Virus record (IMG/VR): IMGVR_UViG_3300017785_009800
Location: 1 to 27,895 of that record
Source of the DNA: a virus
Taxonomy: Duplodnaviria; Caudoviricetes
Reading direction: 5' to 3' (one strand)
Length of the DNA stretch: 27,895 nucleotides
Below the pieces are notes generated by a model. It was not told the origin of the DNA. It made no database searches and saw only the letters and a program-made list of their open reading frames with translations. A program made the position numbers and the translations under genes. Below are positions 8,741 to 27,895 of this stretch, piece by piece (positions within the stretch are counted from its first letter, which is position 1; each line of letters begins with the position of its first letter).

Positions 8741-9898
8741 TTAAGCAAGCTTTATTACAAAAGGTCTAAAGTGGTTTATAACTCTACGAAAATGTCTATA
8801 AGTCGAATCAAGTTCTGCATACCTTTTGTTATTTTTATCAGTCTTAATATATTCCGGTTTATCTTCCAAATAATTTAACATAGATTTTCTATCATATTCT
8901 ACCGCCCATCCTGTATCTGTATCTACATGAATCATACGGTGATTTACTTTATCTTTTATTTCATCCGGATACACTCTAAAAATTCTTTTTGACATATTAC
9001 CTTTTACATCTGCAGTATAACTATTATACCACGAATCTTTCTTAAATTCAAAATCAATACCTTGTAATTGCTTATCACGCTTATCATGAAACCAGGTTAC
9101 TTTGTTATATGTTCTTTTAAGATAAGAGTAAACTATTTCCTCTGCTTTAACTCCTTTACGAACGTTCGGTTTATCTCCAAAAGCTTCTATGGTAGTCTTA
9201 GTCCATTTATTCGTAACTCTATCACTCACTATCTTCTTATTGTAAGTGACCTTTTCTTCTTCTGCAACAACTTTCTTTATATCATATTGTTCTCGGAGCT
9301 TTTTAAACCCCTCAATCCAATTCTCTCTTTTATCTTGAAAGACTTGACATTCACCTGTTTCACAACTAATAAGAACAGTAATATCTGAAATAGCGATTCC
9401 AGTGCGCTCTTCAAACATATAACTATATGCGCTGGCCTGCATGAAGTAATCCCAGATATATTCACGCTTCTTTAACTTAGAACTCGTCTTAAAATCAATA
9501 ATAGATAACATATCGTCAAACCTCCCAACACAATCTACTTGACCTGCAACTCTCAGCTTATCTGAATACAGGTGTTGCTCCATGCATCTTATGTCACTAA
9601 TACGGGTTAAAAAAGGTTTAAACTGATCAAACATACCGCCTATAGTATCAAGCGGAACTTTATTATCTAAGAACTCCTCACAAAGAGAATGAAAAGTAGT
9701 TCCTCTTTTAGCGGCAAAATTCTTAATTCTATCAGCTTCTTCTTCTCCAACACGTTCGCGCCATCTCTTAAGACCTTTCTTCTTCTCTTCAGAAAGAACT
9801 GTTGTGACTGAAGGGTATTTCTGCCCCTCAGGTGTTAGGTAGTACCTTGTCCCTGTTTCCAAAGTTACCTTCTGTAACTCCGGTAATTTGATTCTCAT
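8741..9898 (-). CDS. PD-(D/E)XK exonuclease (T4-like phage, Cas4/RecB-like) with extra C-terminal domain
   Basis: RYY.TPEG.KYPSVTTVL, RGT.FH..CE, E..LYS, AGQVDCV, IIDFKTS, Q..AY; about 170 further aa; promoter TTGACT-N17-TATACT at 9906-9934. Confidence 0.85.
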   Translation of the reverse strand: MRIKLPELQKVTLETGTRYYLTPEGQKYPSVTTVLSEEKKKGLKRWRERVGEEEADRIKNFAAKRGTTFHSLCEEFLDNKVPLDTIGGMFDQFKPFLTRISDIRCMEQHLYSDKLRVAGQVDCVGRFDDMLSIIDFKTSSKLKKREYIWDYFMQASAYSYMFEERTGIAISDITVLISCETGECQVFQDKRENWIEGFKKLREQYDIKKVVAEEEKVTYNKKIVSDRVTNKWTKTTIEAFGDKPNVRKGVKAEEIVYSYLKRTYNKVTWFHDKRDKQLQGIDFEFKKDSWYNSYTADVKGNMSKRIFRVYPDEIKDKVNHRMIHVDTDTGWAVEYDRKSMLNYLEDKPEYIKTDKNNKRYAELDSTYRHFRRVINHFRPFVIKLA

Positions 9899-9953: not shown

Positions 9954-10499
9954 TTACTGCTTCATAATGTAACACAAAGAGTAATAAGGAGGCATGTTAG
10001 CATTGGTACCTGACTGGCCAGCTGCAGCTATAGATATCCCAGTAGAGCTGCTTCTTCCATACCATTCTGATCGATCTTTAGAATTCTGAGAAAACCATTG
10101 GTATAGATTAACCACTGGATCTCCAGATCTATATCCACCAGTCCAGAAATTAGTTCCATGACTATGACCCGGGTCAGTCACTGCATGGGTATGACTCACC
10201 ACCACAGCATCCTTGCTTCCTCCTGTTGTTCCTACTGCTGGTGCAGATGTGCCTGCACCTACAACAAACCTATCCACCAGATTGGGTGTACCATTGGCGC
10301 CATTGCACAACAACCAACCGGAGGGTATAGCGTTTGCAGCACCAGACCATAATATGATACCGCCAGAAGGTATGCTCGAAGCAAGAGAAACGACTTGTGT
10401 AACTGATGCACTGTAAGTTGTACCGTTTTCAGAATAAGGAACTAATGCAGCTCCTGCGGGCTGTCTTTGCGTTAATCCAGATATAGATACGTCTGCCAT
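9954..10499 (-). CDS. short tail fibre / tail-collar domain protein (MADV family, copy 1)
   Basis: IPSGGIILWSG..IPSGWLLCNGANGTPNL.DRFVVGAG collar domain; HTH/HSH metal motifs; N.PPYY.L.YI end. Confidence 0.85.
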   Translation of the reverse strand: MADVSISGLTQRQPAGAALVPYSENGTTYSASVTQVVSLASSIPSGGIILWSGAANAIPSGWLLCNGANGTPNLVDRFVVGAGTSAPAVGTTGGSKDAVVVSHTHAVTDPGHSHGTNFWTGGYRSGDPVVNLYQWFSQNSKDRSEWYGRSSSTGISIAAAGQSGTNANMPPYYSLCYIMKQ

Positions 10500-10504
10500 A
10501 TTAA

Positions 10505-10512
10505 TATTTATA
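10505..10512 (-). promoter_or_regulatory. T4-type late promoter TATAAATA
   Basis: Exact TATAAATA 5 nt before ATG(10499); TAAATA-N5-ATG recurs 14 times in the window. Confidence 0.75.
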
Positions 10513-10545
10513 AAAAAAGAGCGTATATATTGCTATATACGCTCT
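10512..10545 (-). terminator. intrinsic terminator
   Basis: AGAGCGTATATA-GCAA-TATATACGCTCT followed by a U-tract. Confidence 0.85.
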
Positions 10546-10912
10546 AATCTCGCGTCACGGTTTACGCAAAAGAAACTAGCAATCTGCCAAGTCAACTACA
10601 TCGTATTCGAATTTAAATGGCTATAACTATCTAGCCTAGTTAAATGTAATCAGCCTACGTACTGTGCTATGTTGTTACATCATAGCGAAGCCTTAAGACT
10701 TGTAATACTAGTCAGGGATGTTTACACTGTATGATTTTCGATTTAGCAGGCTTACTTCTTATTAATTTCACTTAATAGTTGCTACTATCATACTCCCATT
10801 CATTTACAAGTATATCTACTTGTATTCGCCTGTGGGTCTCGGCGTTGGACTATTCAAGATTTACCTTCGAGGTCCCAACCTCTACTTCTTACAGATTTGC
10901 TATCAAAGAACT
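10546..10912 (-). ncRNA. candidate large structured ncRNA (~370 nt), family unknown
   Basis: No credible ORF; own promoter and terminator; 5'/3' closing stem and many internal helices. Confidence 0.65.
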
Positions 10913-10919
10913 AATAATA

Positions 10920-10947
10920 ATTATATGTACTTTTCTAAAGGAAGCAA
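10920..10947 (-). promoter_or_regulatory. sigma70-type promoter of the ncRNA candidate
   Basis: TTGCTT-N16-TATAAT, followed not by ATG but by boxA-like GTTCTTTGA. Confidence 0.7.
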
Positions 10948-10956
10948 CTAGCTTTT

Positions 10957-11031
10957 TTAAATTTTTATAAAATTAGCTATAAACCCAATAGAACAAACAC
11001 CTAACAAACCTAACGCTGTTACTAATATCAT
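10957..11031 (-). CDS. possible 24-aa membrane peptide
   Basis: Own translation MILVTALGLLGVCSIGFIANFIKI. Confidence 0.35.
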   Translation of the reverse strand: MILVTALGLLGVCSIGFIANFIKI

Positions 11032-11041
11032 GTAGTAGTTA

Positions 11042-11551
11042 TTACAGCTTGATTATATATGCAAGAGCATAATAAGGAGGTAGATTAGCATTGGAACCAG
11101 ATTGGCCAGTAGATGCTATAGTAATACCGGTAGTCCTGGCGTCTGTGAATATCATTGTAGGATTATCAAACTGCTGTTGTCCAAAGGATCTAAAGCTTCC
11201 TCCTACACCATCTGCTGCTATATTTGTTGCATGCGAATGGCCGGGGTCAGATACAGTATGTGTATGGTTTACCACAACGGCGTCAGCTGAACCCCCTGTG
11301 TTTGTAGGGTTATATGCACTGCCAGCTCCTATAATAAATCTATCTTGTAAATTGGGAGTACCATTAGCTCCATTACAAAGAGCCCATCCTGTTGGTATAG
11401 AGGCTATGGATCCCGACCACATCATAATTACTCCTGTTGGAATAATTTGATTTAATGTTGCGTTATAAGTAACGCCTCCTTCAGAATAAGGAAATACAGC
11501 AGAATTACTAGGCTGTCTATTAGTTAATGCAGATATGGTTACGTCGGCCAT
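11042..11551 (-). CDS. short tail fibre / tail-collar domain protein (MADV family, copy 2)
   Basis: Collar domain IPTGVIMMWSG...GWALCNG; HTH/HSH; NLPPYYALAYI. Confidence 0.85.
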   Translation of the reverse strand: MADVTISALTNRQPSNSAVFPYSEGGVTYNATLNQIIPTGVIMMWSGSIASIPTGWALCNGANGTPNLQDRFIIGAGSAYNPTNTGGSADAVVVNHTHTVSDPGHSHATNIAADGVGGSFRSFGQQQFDNPTMIFTDARTTGITIASTGQSGSNANLPPYYALAYIIKL

Positions 11552-11552
11552 A

Positions 11553-12116
11553 TTATGAAACCCTCATTATATATGCAAGGGCGTAGTAGGGAGGTAAGTT
11601 CTGATTGGTACCAGCTACACCTTGAGAATTGATAGTAATACCTGTAATTTTTGATGTAGTAGAAGCAGCTCTGTTGCTTCCTCCTCTTCCGGCCCCTAGG
11701 TCATCATTAGCCCCATTCCATGTACCGTTAGCTAAAACAGGAGCTACATCATGAGTATGTCCATTGTCTGTTATACCGTGACTATGACTCACCACCACAG
11801 CATCCTTAGAGCCTCCAGTTAGCGTGTTAGCACCAGTGATGTTGGTATTAGCTATACCGGAGTTATCTATGGCTGCTCCGACAATAAATTTATTTCTCAA
11901 ATCCGGCGTTCCGTTAGTTCCATTACAAAATGCCCAATTAGACGGTATTGAAGCTACAGACCCCGACCACATAATGATAGAACCTATAGGAACTATTAGA
12001 TCAGCAATTTGCGTTATTGTAAGCTTAGTAGTTGTTGAACTATTAGAATAAGGTACAACACCAGAGCGAGCAGGAGAAGTAGTAGAGTTTAGTCCAGATA
12101 TGGTTACGTCGGCCAT
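11553..12116 (-). CDS. short tail fibre / tail-collar domain protein (MADV family, copy 3)
   Basis: Collar domain VPIGSIIMWSG...WAFCNG; HSH/HTH; NLPPYYALAYI; TAAATA-N6-ATG. Confidence 0.85.
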   Translation of the reverse strand: MADVTISGLNSTTSPARSGVVPYSNSSTTTKLTITQIADLIVPIGSIIMWSGSVASIPSNWAFCNGTNGTPDLRNKFIVGAAIDNSGIANTNITGANTLTGGSKDAVVVSHSHGITDNGHTHDVAPVLANGTWNGANDDLGAGRGGSNRAASTTSKITGITINSQGVAGTNQNLPPYYALAYIMRVS

Positions 12117-12137
12117 ATCTAATATTTAATAGAAAAC

Positions 12138-12353
12138 TTATTTCTTTTTCTTCTTAGTCTTCTTTTTCTTTTTCTTCTTAGGAGCTTCTTCTTCCTCATT
12201 GAGATAGTCAAAGTTAGGAAGATCCTTCTTAAGAACATCATACTTAACATATTCTACTAGTGAAAGGGCTTTATCCTTAACTGTAAAAGTTAAGTCTTCA
12301 ACCTTCCATTTAACTGTTTCTACTGCATCTAATATTTTGTCGAATAAGCTCAT
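12138..12353 (-). CDS. hypothetical protein with poly-Lys C-terminus
   Basis: 71 aa ending EEEEAPKKKKKKKTKKKKK; TAAATA-N5-ATG. Confidence 0.75.
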   Translation of the reverse strand: MSLFDKILDAVETVKWKVEDLTFTVKDKALSLVEYVKYDVLKKDLPNFDYLNEEEEAPKKKKKKKTKKKKK

Positions 12354-16875: not shown

Positions 16876-17112
16876 TTAAACTACATTAATAAAACTATCT
16901 GTTGCACGAGCAAAATGTTGATAATCATCATAAAAGTAACCAACGGTATCTCCAAATTTACTAGTGCCTTTATGACGAGCGAGAATTTTCCACTGCTCAG
17001 TAAACTTTGGACCATGAAAATCTAATATATCTTTTTCCGTAACATAATGTGTAGATGTCTCAACACCGAAAGATGTTTTATAGTCAATTTTTCGTCTTTT
17101 ACAGAACTTCAT
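16876..17112 (-). CDS. hypothetical protein
   Basis: Start MKFCKRR overlaps the upstream stop. Confidence 0.65.
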   Translation of the reverse strand: MKFCKRRKIDYKTSFGVETSTHYVTEKDILDFHGPKFTEQWKILARHKGTSKFGDTVGYFYDDYQHFARATDSFINVV

Positions 17113-17867
17113 GGAGATAATGGAGACCACAATTTCATATCATTTAATTGATTATAAAGCATAATGGTAACATGGCCATCTAAAAATGCAACAACAGCAT
17201 TGCCATTATAGCGAGCTGATACATAACCGGTAGCTTTTGGGTTACTTAGATCATCATATTTTGTGGCCCATTTGCCAGGATAGGCTGGTGCATCTACATA
17301 ATAAAAGCCTCTATATCTTTTACCGACTGCTTCGCTTCTTGTTGTTACGAATGCTATAGTATTACCTGGCTTGGGAACTTGTACTAATCTTGTAGCTACC
17401 AATCCTTTTTTATTAAGGGAAGAAAAAGAAGTATAATCGTTACCGCCAATAAAGTTTGCGTTGAGTCCAACAGAAGGTAATACACTTACTAGATATGACT
17501 GTGTGATGCCTCCTTGACTTGTAATAAAAGACTTTGATTCATTAACATGTGTACCGCCTAGAAAGCCATAGTTAAAGTAAGGAGCTAATCTCCAGGGCCA
17601 GCGATGTGCTTCATGTGAATCTTCTCCTCCCATGACTCGTCCGCTTGAATCATAGGCCGTACCATTAATATCATACCCCTTCATAAGCACCCCTTCATTA
17701 TCAGCTGAATGAGCTAAGTAGGCGGTAACCGTTGTCTTGCACGCCGCAACATCAGCAGCTTTCTTACCTGCATTGGAGGCTTGTTTAAACGCCGGTAATC
17801 CTAATCCGGCTAGTACACCTATAATACCGATAACAACCAAAAGCTCTACAAGGGTAAAAGCTTTCAC
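17109..17867 (-). CDS. prepilin-type N-terminal cleavage/methylation protein with H-X9-DG-like C-terminus (PVC type)
   Basis: KAFTLVELLVVIGIIGVLAGLGLPA; C-terminal RYNGNAVVAFLDGHV. Confidence 0.9.
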   Translation of the reverse strand: MKAFTLVELLVVIGIIGVLAGLGLPAFKQASNAGKKAADVAACKTTVTAYLAHSADNEGVLMKGYDINGTAYDSSGRVMGGEDSHEAHRWPWRLAPYFNYGFLGGTHVNESKSFITSQGGITQSYLVSVLPSVGLNANFIGGNDYTSFSSLNKKGLVATRLVQVPKPGNTIAFVTTRSEAVGKRYRGFYYVDAPAYPGKWATKYDDLSNPKATGYVSARYNGNAVVAFLDGHVTIMLYNQLNDMKLWSPLSP

Positions 17868-18651: not shown

Positions 18652-19425
18652 TTATGAATAAAATAGAAATACTATACCGCCTCTTCCTCCATTACTATCA
18701 AAACTATTACATCCTCCACCTCCGACACTAATGCTCATAGTTTGCCCTCCTGTAACATTAAAAATATGCATAAAAGCTCCCCCTCCACCTCCTCTATTGT
18801 TTCCTTTTTGTGTATCACCATAGTTTGAGTCTGTACCGATAGTATTATAAAACCACGGTAATCCAGATTGTCCGCCAGTATTAGGTCCTTGTATAGCGGA
18901 CGAATAGCCGGTAAATTTAATAAGTGCATTAGCAGATGGTACACCTCCTGGAGCGTTATAGCTAGCGCAACAACCGTTACCAACTCCTCCGGTAGCTGAT
19001 ACTGTAGTTCCTCCGTAAGTAACTGATGTCGGTCCGCCTTGAGTTCCTGACCCCACATCAGGAATATTTGTACCCCCTCCCCCAGCTACTGCTACAACAA
19101 ACACTTGTGTCACACCTGTAGGCACAGTCCACGTGGCGGTTACTGGAAGAGCAGGGTTAGGATATCTACTACGCGCATTGTCATTAGCATACACTCTACA
19201 TCCTCCTGTTACGGGTATAGTTGGCTTGTTTTTAATATAATCTAATGCACCAGTAGTAGTTTGATTCCAATCTGATTGTATTTGAGCTGCAGGAATCGCT
19301 AGAGCTGTTTTTATTTGGGCTAAAGAAGCTTTATATGTGCTGGGTGATACTGATGTACTAAAGGGAAACAGATCATTTGTAGTAGGAGCTTGACTAGAAA
19401 GATCATTGATTGTTACGTCGGCCAT
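18652..19425 (-). CDS. Gly-rich tail fibre/adhesin (MADV family, copy 5)
   Basis: MADVTINDL; QSDWNQ...DYIKNKP fibre motif; TWTVPTGVT.V.V..VAGGGG Gly-rich head. Confidence 0.8.
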   Translation of the reverse strand: MADVTINDLSSQAPTTNDLFPFSTSVSPSTYKASLAQIKTALAIPAAQIQSDWNQTTTGALDYIKNKPTIPVTGGCRVYANDNARSRYPNPALPVTATWTVPTGVTQVFVVAVAGGGGTNIPDVGSGTQGGPTSVTYGGTTVSATGGVGNGCCASYNAPGGVPSANALIKFTGYSSAIQGPNTGGQSGLPWFYNTIGTDSNYGDTQKGNNRGGGGGAFMHIFNVTGGQTMSISVGGGGCNSFDSNGGRGGIVFLFYS

Positions 19426-19476
19426 ATCATTAATATTTATGTGGAATCCTGTACTAAAAGCATATATATTATTTAT

Positions 19477-19782
19477 ATGAATAAACTACTCGTTACTATG
19501 GCCACAAGTGTAATGCTTGTTGGCTCTGCTCTGGCTGACAATGGTGCTGCTTCTAATACAAGCAACAATGATGTCACTGTAGAGAGCGTTTGGACATGCA
19601 TTGGTGATGTGTTACTTGTGAGACCCATTGGAGCTGCAGCCACTGTTGCCGGCTTTGGTGTGTTTGCTGTAGCATCGCCTTTTGCTGCCATGGCTGATGC
19701 CACAGAGAAAGTGTATGACACAGTTGTAACTGCTCCTGGTGAATACACATTCTGCCGCGATCTTGGCGATTTCTCCAAGTAA
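19477..19782 (+). CDS. secreted/membrane protein of bacterial type
   Basis: Signal peptide MNKLLVTMATSVMLVGSALA; GDVLLVRPIG.AATVAG...P.EYTF.R.LG. Confidence 0.75.
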   Translation: MNKLLVTMATSVMLVGSALADNGAASNTSNNDVTVESVWTCIGDVLLVRPIGAAATVAGFGVFAVASPFAAMADATEKVYDTVVTAPGEYTFCRDLGDFSK

Positions 19783-19831
19783 TCCTATTCTAGTCAAGAG
19801 TTCAATCCTTTTGGCTAGATTAAATATTTCC

Positions 19832-19990
19832 ATGACCTTTAAAGAGTATATGCGTCAACAGTTACGCAAAAAGAAAAAGAAATCACCTCTTCCTCAGGCA
19901 GATAAAACGCCTCTTGTTACCAGTGCTGACATGATTCCAACTCAATCTTTGCCTGCTGCTACAGGCGGCAACCAGCCCAGTCTCTCTTAA
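19832..19990 (+). CDS. small basic late protein
   Basis: MTFKEYMRQQLRKKKKK; TAAATA-N5-ATG fixes the start. Confidence 0.65.
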   Translation: MTFKEYMRQQLRKKKKKSPLPQADKTPLVTSADMIPTQSLPAATGGNQPSLS

Positions 19991-20034
19991 TTTTTATATT
20001 GCCAGTTTTCCAAATTCCGTTACAATAACGGATA

Positions 20035-20376
20035 ATGAAATTAAAGATTATTGCTTTAACAGGTTTGCTTGCTATTAACGCATTTGCAGAAGATATTGCA
20101 AAGCTTCGTGTGCATGGCAATTCAATGTATCCTACCTTTAAGAACGGTGACCTTCTTTACATTGATAAAGATATTCCATATGGCTCTTTACGAGAAGGTG
20201 ATATTGTTTGCTTCAACGATCCAGAATACAGTCAAGAGATTTCAACTTGTCATAGAGTTGTCTTGCAGACCTTCAAAGGGTTTATTGCAAAAGGGGATAA
20301 CAATTTCCTTTGTGATGGAAATTATATCATCCAACAAAACTATGTTGGTAAGGTAGTTAAAATTATTTCTGAATAA
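20035..20376 (+). CDS. S26/S24 family (signal peptidase I-like) peptidase
   Basis: GNSMYPT, GDIV.F, HRVV, KGDNN...D (Ser-His type); TTGCCA-N16-TACAAT upstream. Confidence 0.85.
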   Translation: MKLKIIALTGLLAINAFAEDIAKLRVHGNSMYPTFKNGDLLYIDKDIPYGSLREGDIVCFNDPEYSQEISTCHRVVLQTFKGFIAKGDNNFLCDGNYIIQQNYVGKVVKIISE

Positions 20377-22876: not shown

Positions 22877-23746
22877 CTAACTTACTGCTCCTAGTGGAGC
22901 ATTGCCAGTTGTTGTTGCCACATTACCATTTAGCGTAATGGCTTTGCCAGCTGCACCCCCTGCTCCAGGGTATGAACGCGAAAGGTCCCGATTATATGGT
23001 GGAGCTCCGCTGGTACCGTTTTGACCTAAATATCCACCATTTCCTCCAGTAGCAGTCATAGTAACATTCCTAAATCTATAGCTATATACACCTCCAGCTC
23101 CTCCATTTGAAGTAGTACCTGCATTTCCCCCTCGACAATTGTTAGTTGTGTTACCAGGTGAAGTACATACACCTGCTCCTCCTCCTGAAAAACCTGCGCC
23201 GCCGCCTCCTCCTGCAGTTACAAGAAAACCGCCTTCTAAGGGATAGAACTGACAACCACCTCCCCCGCCGCCTCCTCCCCCGCCTATAGTCCCTAAATTA
23301 TTTATTGTTATATTATAGCTCAAACTTATTGCAGACCCCCCTGGAGACCCGTTTTCAGCACCAAATTGAAATGCATAAGAATTACCTCCCCTTCCTCCTG
23401 CACCTGCAATTATAGCATTATTGGTGAGGGTGATGGAACTGCCGGCAGGCCATGTGCCTGTAACTAAAGATGCAGTGCCTGTGGAAGAGCTGCCTACGTT
23501 GCCTGTTACAGTAAAGCTTACATCAACGGGAGTCGATGAAAAGTCCCCGGTTTGTGTTTCATATAATGACCTCAAGTTAATATTATTACCACCTGTTATA
23601 GTAATAGTAGTATCAGAAGCATAAAACTTGGTCCAAATACCATCTTTGTTAATCCATCCTGATTTTACTGCTTTCCATGTGCCATCATTAACACTAAGCT
23701 TCCTTACTGTCTTCCATGTACCATTGTCATTAACTGAAAATGCCAT
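22877..23746 (-). CDS. Gly-rich tail-fibre tip adhesin, gp38-like (MAFSVND family, copy 1)
   Basis: Conserved N-module; NINL..., I.GAGG.GG, I.N.GTIGGGGGGG polyglycine pattern of T-even gp38. Confidence 0.8.
   Translation of the reverse strand: MAFSVNDNGTWKTVRKLSVNDGTWKAVKSGWINKDGIWTKFYASDTTITITGGNNINLRSLYETQTGDFSSTPVDVSFTVTGNVGSSSTGTASLVTGTWPAGSSITLTNNAIIAGAGGRGGNSYAFQFGAENGSPGGSAISLSYNITINNLGTIGGGGGGGGGGCQFYPLEGGFLVTAGGGGGAGFSGGGAGVCTSPGNTTNNCRGGNAGTTSNGGAGGVYSYRFRNVTMTATGGNGGYLGQNGTSGAPPYNRDLSRSYPGAGGAAGKAITLNGNVATTTGNAPLGAVS
23620..23746 (-). repeat. ~127-bp direct repeat encoding the adhesin N-module (other copies ~24354-24480, 25109-25235, 26050-26179, 27279-27405)
   Basis: Near-identical DNA, differences mostly at third codon positions. 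Confidence 0.85.
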
Positions 23747-23754
23747 AAGAATAT

Positions 23755-23838
23755 TTAATTGAATGTTATTGTGCCTGATGATGTGAAAGTATACACAGTT
23801 TCAGATCCAACTGTAGTGACTGAAACAGTGCCAGTTGT
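23755..23838 (-). repeat. ~84-bp direct repeat encoding the adhesin C-module (other copies ~24489-24572, 25244-25327)
   Basis: Shared GTATACACAGTTTC..CCAACTGTAGTGACTGAAAC blocks. Confidence 0.85.
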
Positions 23839-24480
23839 GGCAGCTGCTGATGTCTCTACTGGTACTTTAATTATAACTACCCCAGATGCACCTCCATTTC
23901 CATATGGAGGATATCCAGATATTCCATTGGAACTGCCTGGCGTGTTAGTACTACCTCCTCCTGCTCCCCCCCCTGCTCCAGGTGCTCCGTTGTTGGCAGT
24001 ACATCTTCTATGGTCTGGATATGGATTCTGAGTTACAGTTCCTCCTCCTCCCCCTCCACCGCCTGTAGCAATTATATTATATACTGAAATTGAACTGGAC
24101 GCACCTGGGCTTCCTGCATATCCACAAGCAAAATTTTGCCCATAATAACCACTAGCCCCGTCGGCTCCTCTATCACCCACATTAATATTTAAACTTTCAC
24201 CTGTCGGTATTATAATATTGCCTGTACTTGCACCTGCTCCACCGCCATTACCACCATTCCCAATTCCCAGATTCCCAAAACAACTTCTCCTGCAGGAACC
24301 CCCTGTGCCGCCTCCACCCCCTACTACAGTCACTTGAGCGGTAATATCAGATGCATAAAACTTGGTCCAAACACCATTCTTATTAATCCAACCCGATTTT
24401 ACTGCTTTCCATGTACCATCATTGACACTGAGTTTCTTTACTGTTTTCCAAGTACCGTTGTCATTAACTGAAAATGCCAT
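23755..24480 (-). CDS. Gly-rich adhesin (MAFSVND family, copy 2)
   Basis: Conserved N-module; VVGGGGG; C-terminal TTGTVSVTTVGSETVYTFTSSGTITFN. Confidence 0.8.
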   Translation of the reverse strand: MAFSVNDNGTWKTVKKLSVNDGTWKAVKSGWINKNGVWTKFYASDITAQVTVVGGGGGTGGSCRRSCFGNLGIGNGGNGGGAGASTGNIIIPTGESLNINVGDRGADGASGYYGQNFACGYAGSPGASSSISVYNIIATGGGGGGGGTVTQNPYPDHRRCTANNGAPGAGGGAGGGSTNTPGSSNGISGYPPYGNGGASGVVIIKVPVETSAAATTGTVSVTTVGSETVYTFTSSGTITFN

Positions 24481-24488
24481 ATGTATAC

Positions 24489-25235
24489 TTAATTAAATGT
24501 CATTGTGCCCGATGATGTGAAAGTATACACAGTTTCTGAACCAACTGTAGTGACTGAAACTGTACCTGTGGTTGTAATGCTTGTTCCTGTAGGAACAGTA
24601 AATTGAACTGCTCCTTGAGTACTTGCATTACCATAACTACCTAACGTAATGCCTGAGTTTACATCTCCTCCTGATGCAGAACCGGTTGCACCAGTAGAAC
24701 CATTACTAGTGTAAGTATAAGGTCCACCGGACCGCCCATCTCTATATTGATAACCTCCAGTACCTCCAGTACCCCCAGTACCTCCAGTGCAATTAATATT
24801 CACACCTGTTCCTGTAACAGCAGAAGATTGACCTGTGCCTCCAGTGGTTCCTATTGCACGCATACTAGTGGTACCTAAGCATTGGGTGGATTGACTTACA
24901 CCTTCTGTACCAGCACCTCCTACTGTTATGGTCAAGGTGGATCCTGATTCAAGATTTAAGGTTTTAGAACTACCGCCTCCTCTGCCTCCAGCTCCTCCGA
25001 AACCTGTTACAGATGGCAAGCAGCCAGAGAAACGATAGAGATAACTGCCATTCCCTCCAGAACCACCACCTCCTCCGATTGCAGTTACTCGAGCAGTAAC
25101 TGAACTAGAATAAAACTTGGTCCAAACACCATCCTTGTTAATCCATCCTGATTTTACAGCTTTCCATGTGCCATCATTGACACTGAGTTTCTTTACTGTT
25201 TTCCAAGTACCGCTATCATTAACTGAAAATGCCAT
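24489..25235 (-). CDS. Gly-rich adhesin (MAFSVND family, copy 3)
   Basis: Same N- and C-modules as copy 2, divergent core. Confidence 0.8.
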   Translation of the reverse strand: MAFSVNDSGTWKTVKKLSVNDGTWKAVKSGWINKDGVWTKFYSSSVTARVTAIGGGGGSGGNGSYLYRFSGCLPSVTGFGGAGGRGGGSSKTLNLESGSTLTITVGGAGTEGVSQSTQCLGTTSMRAIGTTGGTGQSSAVTGTGVNINCTGGTGGTGGTGGYQYRDGRSGGPYTYTSNGSTGATGSASGGDVNSGITLGSYGNASTQGAVQFTVPTGTSITTTGTVSVTTVGSETVYTFTSSGTMTFN

Positions 25236-25243
25236 ATGATTAT

Positions 25244-26179
25244 TTAATTGAATGTAATTGTGCCAGAGCTTGTGAAGGTATACACAGTTTCTGAACCAAC
25301 TGTAGTGACTGAAACTGTACCTGTTGTAGATGCATTAATAGTATTTGCAAATCTCAATATAACTATACCCTGGGTACCACCTCCTCCTTCTTGTCCGGTA
25401 AGGTCAAGACAATCAGTGGAATAATAAGGAGCATTTACACCTCCATTACCCCCACCTCCATAAGATCCTTTACTACCTGCATTACCCCTGGTGCATCTCT
25501 GCCCGCTACGCGCGGGGGGTTGACAAAGAACTGCACCATTTCCCCCTTCAGCATACAATACAGAAGAACCAGTTATATCGCTATATCTTCCAGATCCCCC
25601 TGTAGTACCACTCGCACTACCTCCAGCTCCCCCTCCTCCACCAGAATAGCAACTACCATCTGTTGTACCATATGTACCCCCTACACCATTACCTCCTTGA
25701 GAACCGGTTCCTGCTCCACTACCGGTACTATCACAATTACTCCAACCACCTCCACCTCCTCCTCCGCTACCACCGCTAGCAGCATTAAAACTCCTACCTC
25801 CACCGTATCCGCCCCCGTAACCTATTAAACCGTTAAATGAAGAATTGCCTCCTCCACCGCCACCAACAGTCACGTTATAAGTTACATTATAATCTAAAGT
25901 AACAGATGAATTATCTACAAAACCACCACCCCCTCCTCCTCCTCCTACTACAGAATATCTAATACAATTACCACAATTTCTACCCCCTACCCCGGTAGCA
26001 CCAGTCCCCCCGCCTCCAATTAATAATACACGGCTTGTAAATTGAGATTGATAAAATTTAGTCCAAACACCATTTTTGTTTATCCATCCTGTTTGTACGG
26101 ATTTCCACGTACCGTTATCATTAACACTAAATCTCTTTACTGTCTTCCAGGTACCGTTATCATTAACTGAAAATGCCAT
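25244..26179 (-). CDS. Gly-rich adhesin (MAFSVND family, copy 4)
   Basis: Same N- and C-modules as copy 2, divergent Cys-rich core. Confidence 0.8.
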   Translation of the reverse strand: MAFSVNDNGTWKTVKRFSVNDNGTWKSVQTGWINKNGVWTKFYQSQFTSRVLLIGGGGTGATGVGGRNCGNCIRYSVVGGGGGGGGFVDNSSVTLDYNVTYNVTVGGGGGGNSSFNGLIGYGGGYGGGRSFNAASGGSGGGGGGGWSNCDSTGSGAGTGSQGGNGVGGTYGTTDGSCYSGGGGGAGGSASGTTGGSGRYSDITGSSVLYAEGGNGAVLCQPPARSGQRCTRGNAGSKGSYGGGGNGGVNAPYYSTDCLDLTGQEGGGGTQGIVILRFANTINASTTGTVSVTTVGSETVYTFTSSGTITFN

Positions 26180-26191
26180 AAAGCATTTTCA

Positions 26192-26422
26192 TTATACCTG
26201 GTACCATATATCACCGCTAGAACCACCAGCAGGAGTACCAGTAGAAATGGTCTTTGCTCCTGATGCATTAGTTCCTATAGAAGGCTTTCCGGTTACTGAA
26301 TTCCATGCTACGGGAAGATTGGTAATAGTTGATTTGTATGTGGTTGTACCATCGGAATAAGGAACAACTCCTGTTCCCGCGGGTGTACCTGCATTTAGAT
26401 CTGAGATTGTTACGTCGGCCAT
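26192..26422 (-). CDS. mini fibre/adaptor (MADV family, copy 6)
   Basis: MADVTISDL; WNSVTGKP; ends TISTGTPAGGSSGDIWYQV; TAAATA-N7-ATG. Confidence 0.75.
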   Translation of the reverse strand: MADVTISDLNAGTPAGTGVVPYSDGTTTYKSTITNLPVAWNSVTGKPSIGTNASGAKTISTGTPAGGSSGDIWYQV

Positions 26423-26432
26423 ATAATAATAT

Positions 26433-26624
26433 TTATTCTCTTGGTAATAAACATTCTGATATTATACACATAAAATGTGCTTTTAATGCAGTTTTTTGAC
26501 ACTCTGAACAGCCTGTAGAATTTAGATTCTCTAGAGCAATTCTGTAATCATTTCTCAATACCTCGCAATCTCTGATGCTGCAATCACAAGGAATCTCTAG
26601 ATTAAAGAACTCCTCCACACTCAT
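26433..26624 (-). CDS. small Cys-rich protein
   Basis: 63 aa with CDC, CSEC and further Cys. Confidence 0.65.
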   Translation of the reverse strand: MSVEEFFNLEIPCDCSIRDCEVLRNDYRIALENLNSTGCSECQKTALKAHFMCIISECLLPRE

Positions 26625-26625
26625 A

Positions 26626-27405
26626 TTAACACCTAGAACCTCTCACATCTCCAGCCAGCGTGTAAGAATTTCCGTTCGCTATAATTGCGCATCCGCCTGG
26701 ACCTCCGATGCCTGTTCTTCCTACTAATGTCATAGAATTACCTCCTGCCGCTCCTAGCCCTCCACCTGGTCCTCCATACCAGTAATATCCTCCATAACAT
26801 CTTCCTGCAACACAGCATTGAGCATTTGCTCCTCCACTGGCCAATCCTCCTGCAGAAGCTCGGCCTCCTGCTGCTCCATAACCAGCTCCTCCTCCTCCTC
26901 CTGCATCACATCCACTGTAGCTTATTCCTCCACCGCCTCCGCCACCCCCTCCAACTGTTCCATTGTTTATAATTGTTAATGCCTTGCTTAAGCCAATAGC
27001 TGGACCGCCTCCGCCTCCATTGCCTCCTCCTGCACCTCCTCTGCCAACAACATACACACCTCCATTGATGGTCAGAGTCAATGTTACATCTTCTTCTGGC
27101 CAGGATCCCGTTTGTAGTGCATATGCTCCTGTGCTTGATGCCAATGCATTGCCAGCTAAAATGAAACTAATACTTGATCCAGCGGGACTGGCGTTTCCAT
27201 TCACATTGTTATACTCAGTACGTAAATTAATATCAGTTCCTCCAGCTAAAGTTATTTGCGTAATAATAATAATATCATCATAAAACTTAGTCCATACACC
27301 ATCTTTATTAATCCAACCCGATTTTACAGTCTTCCATGTGCCATCATTGACACTGAGTTTCTTTACTGTTTTCCAAGTGCCGTTGTCATTGACTGAGAAT
27401 GCCAT
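26626..27405 (-). CDS. Gly-rich tail-fibre tip adhesin, gp38-like (MAFSVND family, copy 5)
   Basis: Conserved N-module; DINLR, VVGRGGAGG, IINNGTVGGGGGGG; TAAATA-N5-ATG. Confidence 0.8.
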   Translation of the reverse strand: MAFSVNDNGTWKTVKKLSVNDGTWKTVKSGWINKDGVWTKFYDDIIIITQITLAGGTDINLRTEYNNVNGNASPAGSSISFILAGNALASSTGAYALQTGSWPEEDVTLTLTINGGVYVVGRGGAGGGNGGGGGPAIGLSKALTIINNGTVGGGGGGGGGISYSGCDAGGGGGAGYGAAGGRASAGGLASGGANAQCCVAGRCYGGYYWYGGPGGGLGAAGGNSMTLVGRTGIGGPGGCAIIANGNSYTLAGDVRGSRC

Positions 27406-27426
27406 ACCTATATTTATTAAAATATT

Positions 27427-27509
27427 TGGGCAGAAGTGGATTCGAACCTCTGAAGGCGTAAGCCAGAAGATTTACAGTCTTCCCCGTTTGGCCACTTCGG
27501 TATCTGCCC
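27427..27509 (-). tRNA. tRNA-Tyr(GTA)
   Basis: GGGCAGA/TCTGCCC acceptor, GAAGA-CTGTAAA-TCTTC, long V-arm, TTCGAAT; one T-stem mismatch; no CCA. Confidence 0.9.
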
Positions 27510-27511
27510 AT

Positions 27512-27583
27512 CTGTTCGGGTAGGGATCGAACCTACGACCAATGCATTAACAGTGCACCGCTCTACCGCTGAGCTACCGAACA
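27512..27583 (-). tRNA. tRNA-Asn(GTT)
   Basis: TGTTCGG/CCGAACA acceptor, GTGCA-CTGTTAA-TGCAT, TTCGATC. Confidence 0.92.
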
Positions 27584-27588
27584 AAACT

Positions 27589-27676
27589 CGGACAGAGTAG
27601 GATTCGAACCCACGGTACCATTTAAGGCACTTCTGATTTCAAGTCAGATGCAATAGACCAACTCTGCCATCTGTCC
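27589..27676 (-). tRNA. tRNA-Ser(TGA)
   Basis: GGACAGA/TCTGTCC-G, TCTGA-CTTGAAA-TCAGA, long V-arm. Confidence 0.92.
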
Positions 27677-27692
27677 AACATATTATATATCC

Positions 27693-27766
27693 TGCACCTG
27701 GTTGGATTCAAACCAACGCTCTATTGATTAGAAATCAATTGCTTTATTCAACTAAGCTACAGGTGC
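27693..27766 (-). tRNA. tRNA-Arg(TCT)
   Basis: GCACCTG/CAGGTGC, ATTGA-TTTCTAA-TCAAT; atypical T-loop TTTGAAT and D-loop GA. Confidence 0.8.
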
Positions 27767-27774
27767 AGTAAGAT

Positions 27775-27868
27775 TGGTACCTCCGATAGGATTTGAACCT
27801 ATATTGCGCTCACATCTAGAGCTTCACGAGTATAAATCGTGGGTCTTAACCAGTTAGACGACGGAGGC
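27775..27868 (-). tRNA. tRNA with TAT anticodon (nominal Ile-UAU) and long variable arm
   Basis: GCCTCCG/CGGAGGT-ACCA, CACGA-TTTATAC-TCGTG, V-arm GCTC-TAGATGT-GAGC, TTCAAAT. Confidence 0.8.
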
Positions 27869-27895
27869 ATAAACCTCCTATCGTATTCGAATAAC

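Follow-up and report, generated by a model that had tools for sequence, protein, structure and literature searches.

An uncatalogued family of structured phage RNAs with conserved self-complementary words

Large ornate RNAs described from bacteria and phages are few. According to Kretsch et al. 2025 (PMC12286853), ROOL was as abundant as 16S rRNA and yet non-essential in one strain, the large RNA raiA was a monomer, and covariation between adjacent nucleotides was a signature of the inter-chain bridges OLE L9.3 and GOLLD L21a. OLE itself is encoded on the chromosomes of Gram-positive extremophiles, is ~600 nt long and has protein partners. Smaller viral candidate RNAs were reported by Fremin et al. 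2023 (PMC10690425), who relied on the same source type (IMG/VR) and the same kind of evidence as the present work; those candidates were at most 151 nt long, whereas the RNA considered here was ~335 nt.

The window that we analysed was the whole 27,895-nt stretch of a linear virus record from an uncultured freshwater phage (IMGVR_UViG_3300017785_009800), with an estimated completeness of 12%. The minus strand carried most of its genes, and five tRNA genes were located at 27426-27868. A preliminary description had proposed a stand-alone structured RNA between tail-fibre paralogues. The corresponding gap (10500-11041, 542 nt) was flanked by two whole tail-collar paralogues, the downstream one being followed by an exonuclease gene, and the locus had the following features.

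8741..9898, minus strand: exonuclease gene (phrog_298), found next to the RNA more often than any other gene across the clade
9954..10499, minus strand: tail-collar-domain gene, a neighbour outside the RNA (phrog_1800, E 8e-25)
10505..10512, minus strand: TATAAATA, read from the sequence immediately 5' of the downstream collar gene
10512..10567, minus strand: 3' trailer read from the sequence, a small hairpin (10567-10552) and an intrinsic terminator (10545-10518) with a U-run
10577..10912, minus strand: structured non-coding RNA, ~335 nt, running from the AGTTC leader through the closing stem (30 homologs; RNA-run contigs 10591-10897)
10920..10925, minus strand: -10 box TATAAT, with a 16-nt spacer to the -35 box
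10942..10947, minus strand: -35 box TTGCTT with an A-tract upstream (TTGCA in most homologs)
11042..11551, minus strand: tail-collar-domain paralogue, a neighbour (phrog_1800, E 1.6e-27)

Since the gene at 11042-11551 was whole and covered the same phrog_1800 stretch as the gene at 9954-10499, the RNA interrupted no gene. The gap had been called the longest ORF-free stretch, and indeed no longer gap was seen among the probable genes; its sole ORF was an unconserved one of 63 aa on the plus strand. The longest ATG ORFs across the homologs had 11-36 codons in the sense and 5-78 in the antisense direction, and no conserved ORF was found in the RNA among the 30 homologs. Several other features of the record were observed. 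Namely, the collar genes formed an array of three paralogues (9954-12116), and a further array at 22877-27405 consisted of five short tail-related genes with a common N-terminal phrog_25859 stretch. A tRNA called as Ile with a TAT anticodon and an unusual length of 91-94 nt was located at 27775-27868 (minus strand), and the same call was found again in L007, L017, L050 and the L139-type loci. Bacteria rarely have tRNAs with a UAU anticodon. A protein with a prepilin-type N-terminal methylation motif was encoded at 17109-17867 (minus strand). Some of its relatives were named H-X9-DG and the sole two named distant ones were from Planctomycetota, which is a weak hint at a host from the PVC group. 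A T4-type gp23 capsid gene was present in G005, a complete relative of 229.7 kb that carried the RNA, and also in G001 and G002; a T4-like label for the window phage would come from these relatives, as the window itself gave no basis for it. All 20 runs listed with the stretch were metagenomes or metatranscriptomes, 16 of them labelled freshwater.

The proposed promoter, TTGCTT-N16-TATAAT, was found at 10947-10942 and 10925-10920 and its pattern was kept among homologs: the strict expression TTGC-N-TATAAT/TATACT occurred upstream of 20 of 32 and looser versions upstream of the remaining 12. A simple promoter scan did not list it, and its -35 box agreed with the consensus at three of six positions. 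Judging by that consensus, it was probably a sigma70 promoter, whose spacing predicted +1 at 10912. The leader AGTTCTTTGA began at this position on the minus strand, and its AGTTC start was invariant in the homolog alignment. The suggested likeness of the leader to boxA was doubtful, because T and A each occupied the sixth base in 11 of 30 homologs and G in the other 8, and the T-run was not conserved. At the other end, the GCAA-capped terminator was confirmed as the hairpin 10545-10518 followed by a U-run. The trailer hairpin and the terminator were restricted to homologs of the window type, while the other homologs finished in a U-tract after the closing stem.

An RNA upstream of a same-strand gene might be a cis-acting leader or antiterminator controlling that gene, and one contig from RNA run X5 spanned 10016-10686, across the terminator. 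However, a terminator did follow the RNA, the T-run expected of a boxA was not conserved, and the downstream neighbours varied (collar gene, exonuclease or tRNA) and had promoter motifs of their own. In the window, the collar gene at 9954-10499 was preceded by TATAAATA, which we take to be the T4 late-promoter consensus, so that this gene likely had its own promoter; the exonuclease gene had TTGACT-17-TATACT at 9934-9906. A cis-acting role was thus very improbable.

Homologs were collected by searches with neighbouring genes and by matching exact patterns against contigs from viruses and metagenomes, which gave 127 loci. Ninety-five of these matched the profile and were collapsed to 33 groups; the other 32 were rejected as false, as neither nhmmer nor either of the two domain models gave a match. 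Leaving out two partial sequences (L026 and L090) and L107, which was near-identical to L126, we obtained 30 full-length homologs of 343-367 nt (leader and short tail included) with identities of 58-99.7% and a mean of 71%. Two domain covariance models were used in place of a full-length model. The invariance of the 5' core was partly built in, because the patterns that found most homologs fixed this core; L050 and L059, found without 5'-core patterns, both varied within it. In L004 the RNA was 98% identical to that of the window, compared with 92% for the exonuclease region and 70-74% for the upstream collar genes.

The genomic surroundings of the RNA were variable. Within 1.5 kb of it we found an exonuclease gene at 19 of 32 loci, a tRNA gene at 14 and a collar gene at 8, many flanks being truncated. 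Since exonuclease and tRNA genes were the commoner neighbours at these 32 loci, the position between tail-fibre paralogues stressed earlier was incidental; proximity to tRNA genes did not hold in this window. No copy was found in bacterial and archaeal genomes by two exact patterns, which miss diverged copies. In G001, a complete relative whose marker gene was 91% identical, the RNA was absent by BLAST, by both domain models and by the core pattern, and therefore it appeared dispensable in the clade. Weak R2 matches of 15-16 bits were obtained in G003, G004 and G005.

The secondary structure, derived with RNAalifold and extended at two places by helical pairing evident in the alignment, comprised 72 pairs in 12 helices. 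Its elements were as follows.

10891..10902 with 10587-10577, minus strand: P1 closing stem, 12/11 nt; two-sided changes in 5 of 9 pairs, 99.3% paired
10890-10887 with 10859-10856, minus strand: P2; one pair at E=0.03
Between P2 and P3 in the arm 10856..10890, minus strand: AGUA/GAA internal loop, from the alignment
10882-10878 with 10873-10869, minus strand: P3 hairpin with loop UGGG (10877-10874); one pair at E=0.06
Core 10827..10852, minus strand: TAGTC strand of the long-range helix P4, pairing with GACTA at 10713-10709; a TA pair replaced by CG in the X5 variant
Core 10827..10852, minus strand: CAAC linker, then P5 hairpin with cap CCCA (10836-10833), from the covariation helices
10805..10824, minus strand: P6 hairpin with a GAUA loop; two-sided changes in 8 of 8 pairs, one pair at E=0.03
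10715..10797, minus strand: middle domain with P7 (10797-10794/10718-10715), P8 (10793-10787/10735-10729) and a variable, poorly aligned interior
10588..10702, minus strand: 3' domain with P11 (10702-10697/10593-10588), P12 and a variable hairpin (10686-10666), from covariation
10651-10643 with 10602-10594 and 10635-10632 with 10623-10620, minus strand: P14 and P15 of the 3' domain; a P15 pair was top-ranked in the tree null
10642-10638 and 10628-10624, minus strand: invariant complementary words TAACT and AGTTA of the 3' domain

P4 enclosed P5, P6 and the middle domain, and the P5 cap CCCA was a predicted partner of the P3 loop UGGG. Several unpaired words were invariant (AGUA, GAA, CAAC, UUAAC, AGUUA and UCGA), and the AGUA/GAA internal loop is presumably loop-E-like.

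This secondary structure was under selection. Across the 72 pairs and 30 homologs, 98.7% of 2157 cells were paired, compared with 31-36% in slid controls. Two-sided changes affected 37 of the 72 pairs and 249 cells, against shuffle means of 24.9 and 68.1, and no shuffle out of 500 reached these values; the count of further pair types was not above the shuffles (125/500). The shuffle null ignores relatedness, and therefore a G-test with APC was run against 120 tree-simulated nulls in an R-scape-like script. Three pairs reached E<=0.05 and five E<=0.1, with power limited at 30 sequences. Out of 65,341 column pairs, the 12 ranked highest could all pair, in 23-30 of 30 homologs, and eleven of them did so in 28-30. 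Moreover, another variant of the RNA, which came from the assembly of RNA run X5 and stood outside the alignment, kept 8 of 8 affected pairs, six by two-sided changes and P4 among them; it was not fully independent because it resembled the L059/L018 group. The search for homologs and covariation suggested in the preliminary description therefore gave a positive answer: 30 homologs kept their stems by two-sided changes. Folding energy was better than that of shuffled controls as well, modestly so for the window RNA (z = -2.27, 2 of 100 shuffles equally good), and z ranged from -1.65 to -3.23 in the 10 of 30 homologs tested.

The fold read earlier from the single sequence was partly retained. 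The arms of its closing stem did begin at 10902 and finish at 10577, while the AAG/CTT extension belonged to two other helices. Six of its ten internal helices were supported by the 30 homologs. The TACAAGTA/TACTTGTA helix was fully paired in 27 of 30, with 86 two-sided cells; GTATGAT/ATCATAC paired in 28 of 30; CGCC/GGCG was invariant and paired in all 30; GGGA/TCCC formed 3-6 bp in 30 of 30 once its register was freed; GGCTA/TAGCC had a 4-bp core that was 100% paired; and GCTATG/CATAGC corresponded to the variable hairpin, paired in 13 of 30 in fixed columns with 32 two-sided cells. The remaining four fell away. The pseudoknot AGCCTGC/GTAGGCT could form in 4 of 30 homologs and was refuted, other long-range contacts being supported instead; ATAGT/ACTAT paired in 6 of 30, and TAAATG/CATTTA in 6 or 4 of 30 for its two possible partners. 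The GTTGGGAC/GTCCAAC helix could pair in 29 of 30, but it showed no compensatory change in columns that were fixed by the search pattern, and it overlapped the covarying hairpin GAGGT/ACCTC.

The long stem joining the 5' and 3' ends and the position between tail genes in the window would also suit the template RNA of a retron or of a diversity-generating retroelement with the tail-collar genes as its targets. Such an origin was hardly credible: no PF00078 reverse transcriptase was matched in either of two complete genomes, carrier G005 included, a collar gene was a neighbour at only 8 of 32 loci, and the RNA had no second match in the rest of the 27.9-kb record (12% complete) except for a self-match of the terminator.

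Comparison with known RNA classes gave no assignment. The window had no Rfam match at the gathering threshold and none above chance at E<=10. As stated previously, there was no tmRNA signature (none by ARAGORN or Rfam) and no RNase P signature (no covariance-model match). Among the best 20 of 30 matches to annotated GenBank phages there were only chance ones of 26-28 nt, none of them covering 80%. A group I intron was rejected, as the flanking genes were whole, Rfam gave no match, and UAGUC precedes GACUA here; in group I introns the GACUA strand precedes the UAGUC strand. Resemblances to consensus features of a permuted group I intron, RNase P, HDV-like and twister ribozymes, SAM-I and T-box were likewise rejected, with no model match. 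No description of this RNA was found in searches of the openly available literature. Six of the nine supplements of Fremin et al. 2023 (PMC10690425) contained none of four core motifs, and a fragment or compact form may be listed in its files 1, 2 and 4.

Compact relatives of the RNA were identified in other phages. The 5'-domain model, built from long forms only, matched G002 with 23 bits (E 0.003) at a stand-alone element between genes, and relaxed patterns recovered a second type in eight contigs of near-identical sequence, each with tRNA genes no more than 1.5 kb away.

L131:1496-1637 (G002:C1, about 45491-45632): compact relative, ~140 nt, with promoter TTGACT-17-CATAAT, closing stem and U-tract
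L139, L140, L141, L146, L153, L171, L174 and L182, ~1460-1590, motif strand: second compact type, with a TCATGA palindrome

L131, on a related phage fragment that lacked the long form, carried a GTCGAC palindrome. Its unconstrained fold (z -2.08) reproduced P1, P2, P3, GAA, P4, CAAC, P5 with the same bulge and triloop, and P6; the 3' domain was missing, with no R2 match. The second type scored 13 bits (E 0.8) and its MFE structure differed from the proposed fold, so its link to the family was by motifs common to the first compact form; none of three scanned had an Rfam match. No third compact family came from relaxed core patterns. Both forms lacked the middle domain (10715..10797, minus strand), and each had one 6-nt palindrome after P6. 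The core GAA-P4-CAAC-GCC..AGGCGA was kept between long and compact forms. The predicted P3-P5 contact differed between them, UGGG:CCCA in long forms and UGAC:GUC(A/U) in compact ones, which amounted to one two-sided event between groups; the kissing-loop filter was passed by chance in 7 of 72 unrelated motif contexts. Binding of tRNA-CCA by the UGGG loop was rejected: compact forms have UGAC instead, which has an internal partner, and therefore UGGG was not a general CCA-binding site.

A core of 140 nt that persists in sequence from long to compact forms, with a kissing loop and a multiway junction, could be a ribozyme or a ligand-binding fold, for instance in tRNA processing, with optional peripheral domains. 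Its vicinity to tRNA genes at 8 of 9 compact loci, these eight being near-identical copies of a single type, and at 14 of the 32 long ones would be in line with this. On the other hand, the RNA had its own promoter and no fixed place within a tRNA transcript, and no Rfam ribozyme or riboswitch matched the window, L131, L139, L153, L182 or L193. We regarded this explanation as quite unlikely.

Two words of the 3' domain remained self-complementary while their letters changed.

10656..10661, minus strand: palindrome 1, TACGTA, on an unpaired strand; a predicted symmetric copy-to-copy contact
10605..10612, minus strand: palindrome 2, ATTCGAAT, on an unpaired strand, from the alignment

Palindrome 1 was TACGTA in 22 homologs, TATATA in 3, TTATAA in 2 and AACGTA in 3. 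The 6-mer was thus palindromic in 27 of 30, the outer pair being lost in three, and the central 4-mer in all 30. It was the sole 6-column window of 233 with at least two palindromic variants and at least 80% palindromes. Its adjacent columns read CG in 25, TA in 3 and AT in 2, a complementary pair in every one of the 30 homologs, and the word had changed about three times along the tree; its central pair did not reach significance against the tree null (E=0.81). Full complementarity was seen in 3 of 143 adjacent variable column pairs, one of which looked like an alignment artefact. Palindrome 2 was ATTCGAAT in 21 homologs, TATCGATA in 5, GTTCGAAT in 3 and AATCGATA in 1; the 8-mer was palindromic in 26 of 30 (29 with G-U) and the inner 6-mer in 30 of 30. 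The palindrome changes were few and partly shared by descent. L093 looked recombinant, its closing stem being of the window type and its interior, with the alternative palindrome 2, of the L008 type; its palindrome change was therefore weaker as an independent count. A putative third palindrome, CTAG/TCGA at 10741-10738 (28/30), was set aside as weak, being a 4-mer with one change. At the record end, just upstream of the tRNA cluster, 13 nt at 27880-27892 (minus strand) equalled palindrome 2 plus the next five bases; they may be a chance occurrence or what is left of a truncated RNA gene.

Neighbouring bases of a single chain are unable to pair with each other, and covariation of this kind marks the inter-chain bridges of OLE and GOLLD (PMC12286853). 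Palindromes kept under changing letters suggested copy-to-copy pairing of the kind seen in OLE and GOLLD. Palindrome 2 could instead be a T-loop-like motif, as it resembles what we take to be the T-loop sequence UUCGAAU. More generally, the RNA could be a monomer that binds a phage or host protein, its conserved unpaired words serving as protein contacts or as tertiary motifs such as T-loop and loop E. The invariant unpaired words and the T-loop likeness of palindrome 2 would fit this explanation, and raiA offers a precedent for a monomer (PMC12286853). However, a protein reading the sequence would not require palindrome 1 to stay palindromic through changes of letters, palindrome 2 needs four linked changes to become TATCGATA, and no protein gene had a fixed place next to the RNA. 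A monomeric RNA of this type was, in our view, unlikely. We leaned, by a small degree, to a trans-acting RNA that would self-associate through its palindromes.

Evidence for transcription came from six RNA runs containing the stretch, from five studies; four of these were 2017 freshwater sets, perhaps of one campaign. The basis was assembled contigs from runs chosen for containing the stretch, with neither strand, ends nor a same-sample DNA control, and contig depth cannot rank genes. In X5, two contigs identical to the window had depths of 2668 and 2754 and the variant contig 816; depths were 4428 in X19, 948 in X17 and 230 in X18. Most other phage contigs or bins in the same runs had depths of about 1-26, the contigs listed outside the RNA in these four runs being at about 3-26. 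Thus, in four runs the RNA contigs, strandless as they were, were ~40- to several-hundred-fold deeper than their neighbours. The exceptions were an X5 contig at 192 that overlapped the RNA and low-complexity foreign matches at 12137-12180. A second region of raised depth (150 in X5, 105 in X19) was observed at 19344-20000, around which the plus-strand ORFs 19390-19782, 19739-19990 and 20069-20356 looked like real genes. X5 and X19 covered 26 of 30 bins across 20 kb, and therefore the phage itself was present. Two small runs, X16 and X20, yielded essentially nothing but the RNA, covering 10591-10897 in the former and 10591-10832 in the latter at a depth of 9-12, with a stop at 10591 in both. 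The DNA run X13 contained a relative rather than the window phage and did not provide a coverage control. Back-joints were observed in two RNA-run contigs, 10821>10603 in X17 and 10793>10607 in X18. The back-joints differed between runs and one had 7 ambiguous letters; a circular RNA was no more likely than assembly cycles or template switching. Contig depth was good but not decisive evidence for an abundant, discrete RNA.

A working model can be proposed from these observations. The RNA would likely be transcribed from its own host-type promoter and accumulate far above the phage mRNA. Its 5' core (P1-P6) would be locked by a kiss between the P3 loop and the P5 cap, and the middle and 3' domains would be add-ons bearing symmetric contacts, the compact forms carrying one 6-nt palindrome each. 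Copies would pair through the two self-complementary words and form an RNA-only multimer acting in trans. The frequent placement in tRNA islands suggests that the assembled particle might be an accessory factor of the infected cell, most plausibly a scaffold or decoy for a component of host translation or defence, an idea that we considered doubtful. It is also possible, and we put it forward tentatively, that this is a new phage RNA class in which plug-in domains on a ~140-nt kissing-loop core each add symmetric self-pairing sites, ranging from minimal to cage- or lattice-forming RNAs and providing the dominant transcript of an infecting phage. If true, the origin of RNA-only multimers could be followed along a natural series within one family, whose small form would offer a direct handle on the role of such RNAs. 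Small size and a common core in long and compact forms make these RNAs easy to transcribe, probe and image. The family can also be used to ask whether abundant phage RNAs form multimers as a general strategy, and which part carries the function.

The preliminary description had offered a new large phage RNA or a remote relative of GOLLD and ROOL. The first part stood: a new large stand-alone phage non-coding RNA was supported by the covarying stems, by a promoter kept among homologs, by the changing neighbours and by the contigs from RNA runs, and Rfam contained no match to it. The second stood as a parallel in behaviour, with homology unsupported. Similar to ROOL and GOLLD, the RNA was phage-encoded, stand-alone and ornate, with tRNA islands often nearby (here at 14 of 32 loci), and it was apparently dispensable. 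Its contig depth would also fit a very abundant transcript such as theirs. In contrast, the Rfam models of GOLLD and ROOL were unmatched at E<=10 and the helix map differed. The RNA was also smaller, ~335 nt compared with 659 nt for ROOL env-120 and often over 800 nt for GOLLD. The compact ~140-nt form set it further apart, and the multimer was predicted here from a sequence signature alone. As described in PMC12286853, GOLLD L21a is likewise a palindromic word with adjacent-nucleotide covariation, and the palindrome of OLE L9.3 switches between GGCC, GAUC and AGCU and stays self-complementary, as the words of this RNA do. Unlike OLE, our RNA was without an Rfam match, and two exact patterns recovered no copy of it from bacterial or archaeal genomes. 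By model search, then, the family is unrelated to ROOL and GOLLD, half their size or less, and marked by the same sequence signature of copy pairing. It is a real, uncatalogued family that probably works like ROOL and GOLLD and is not a member of either.
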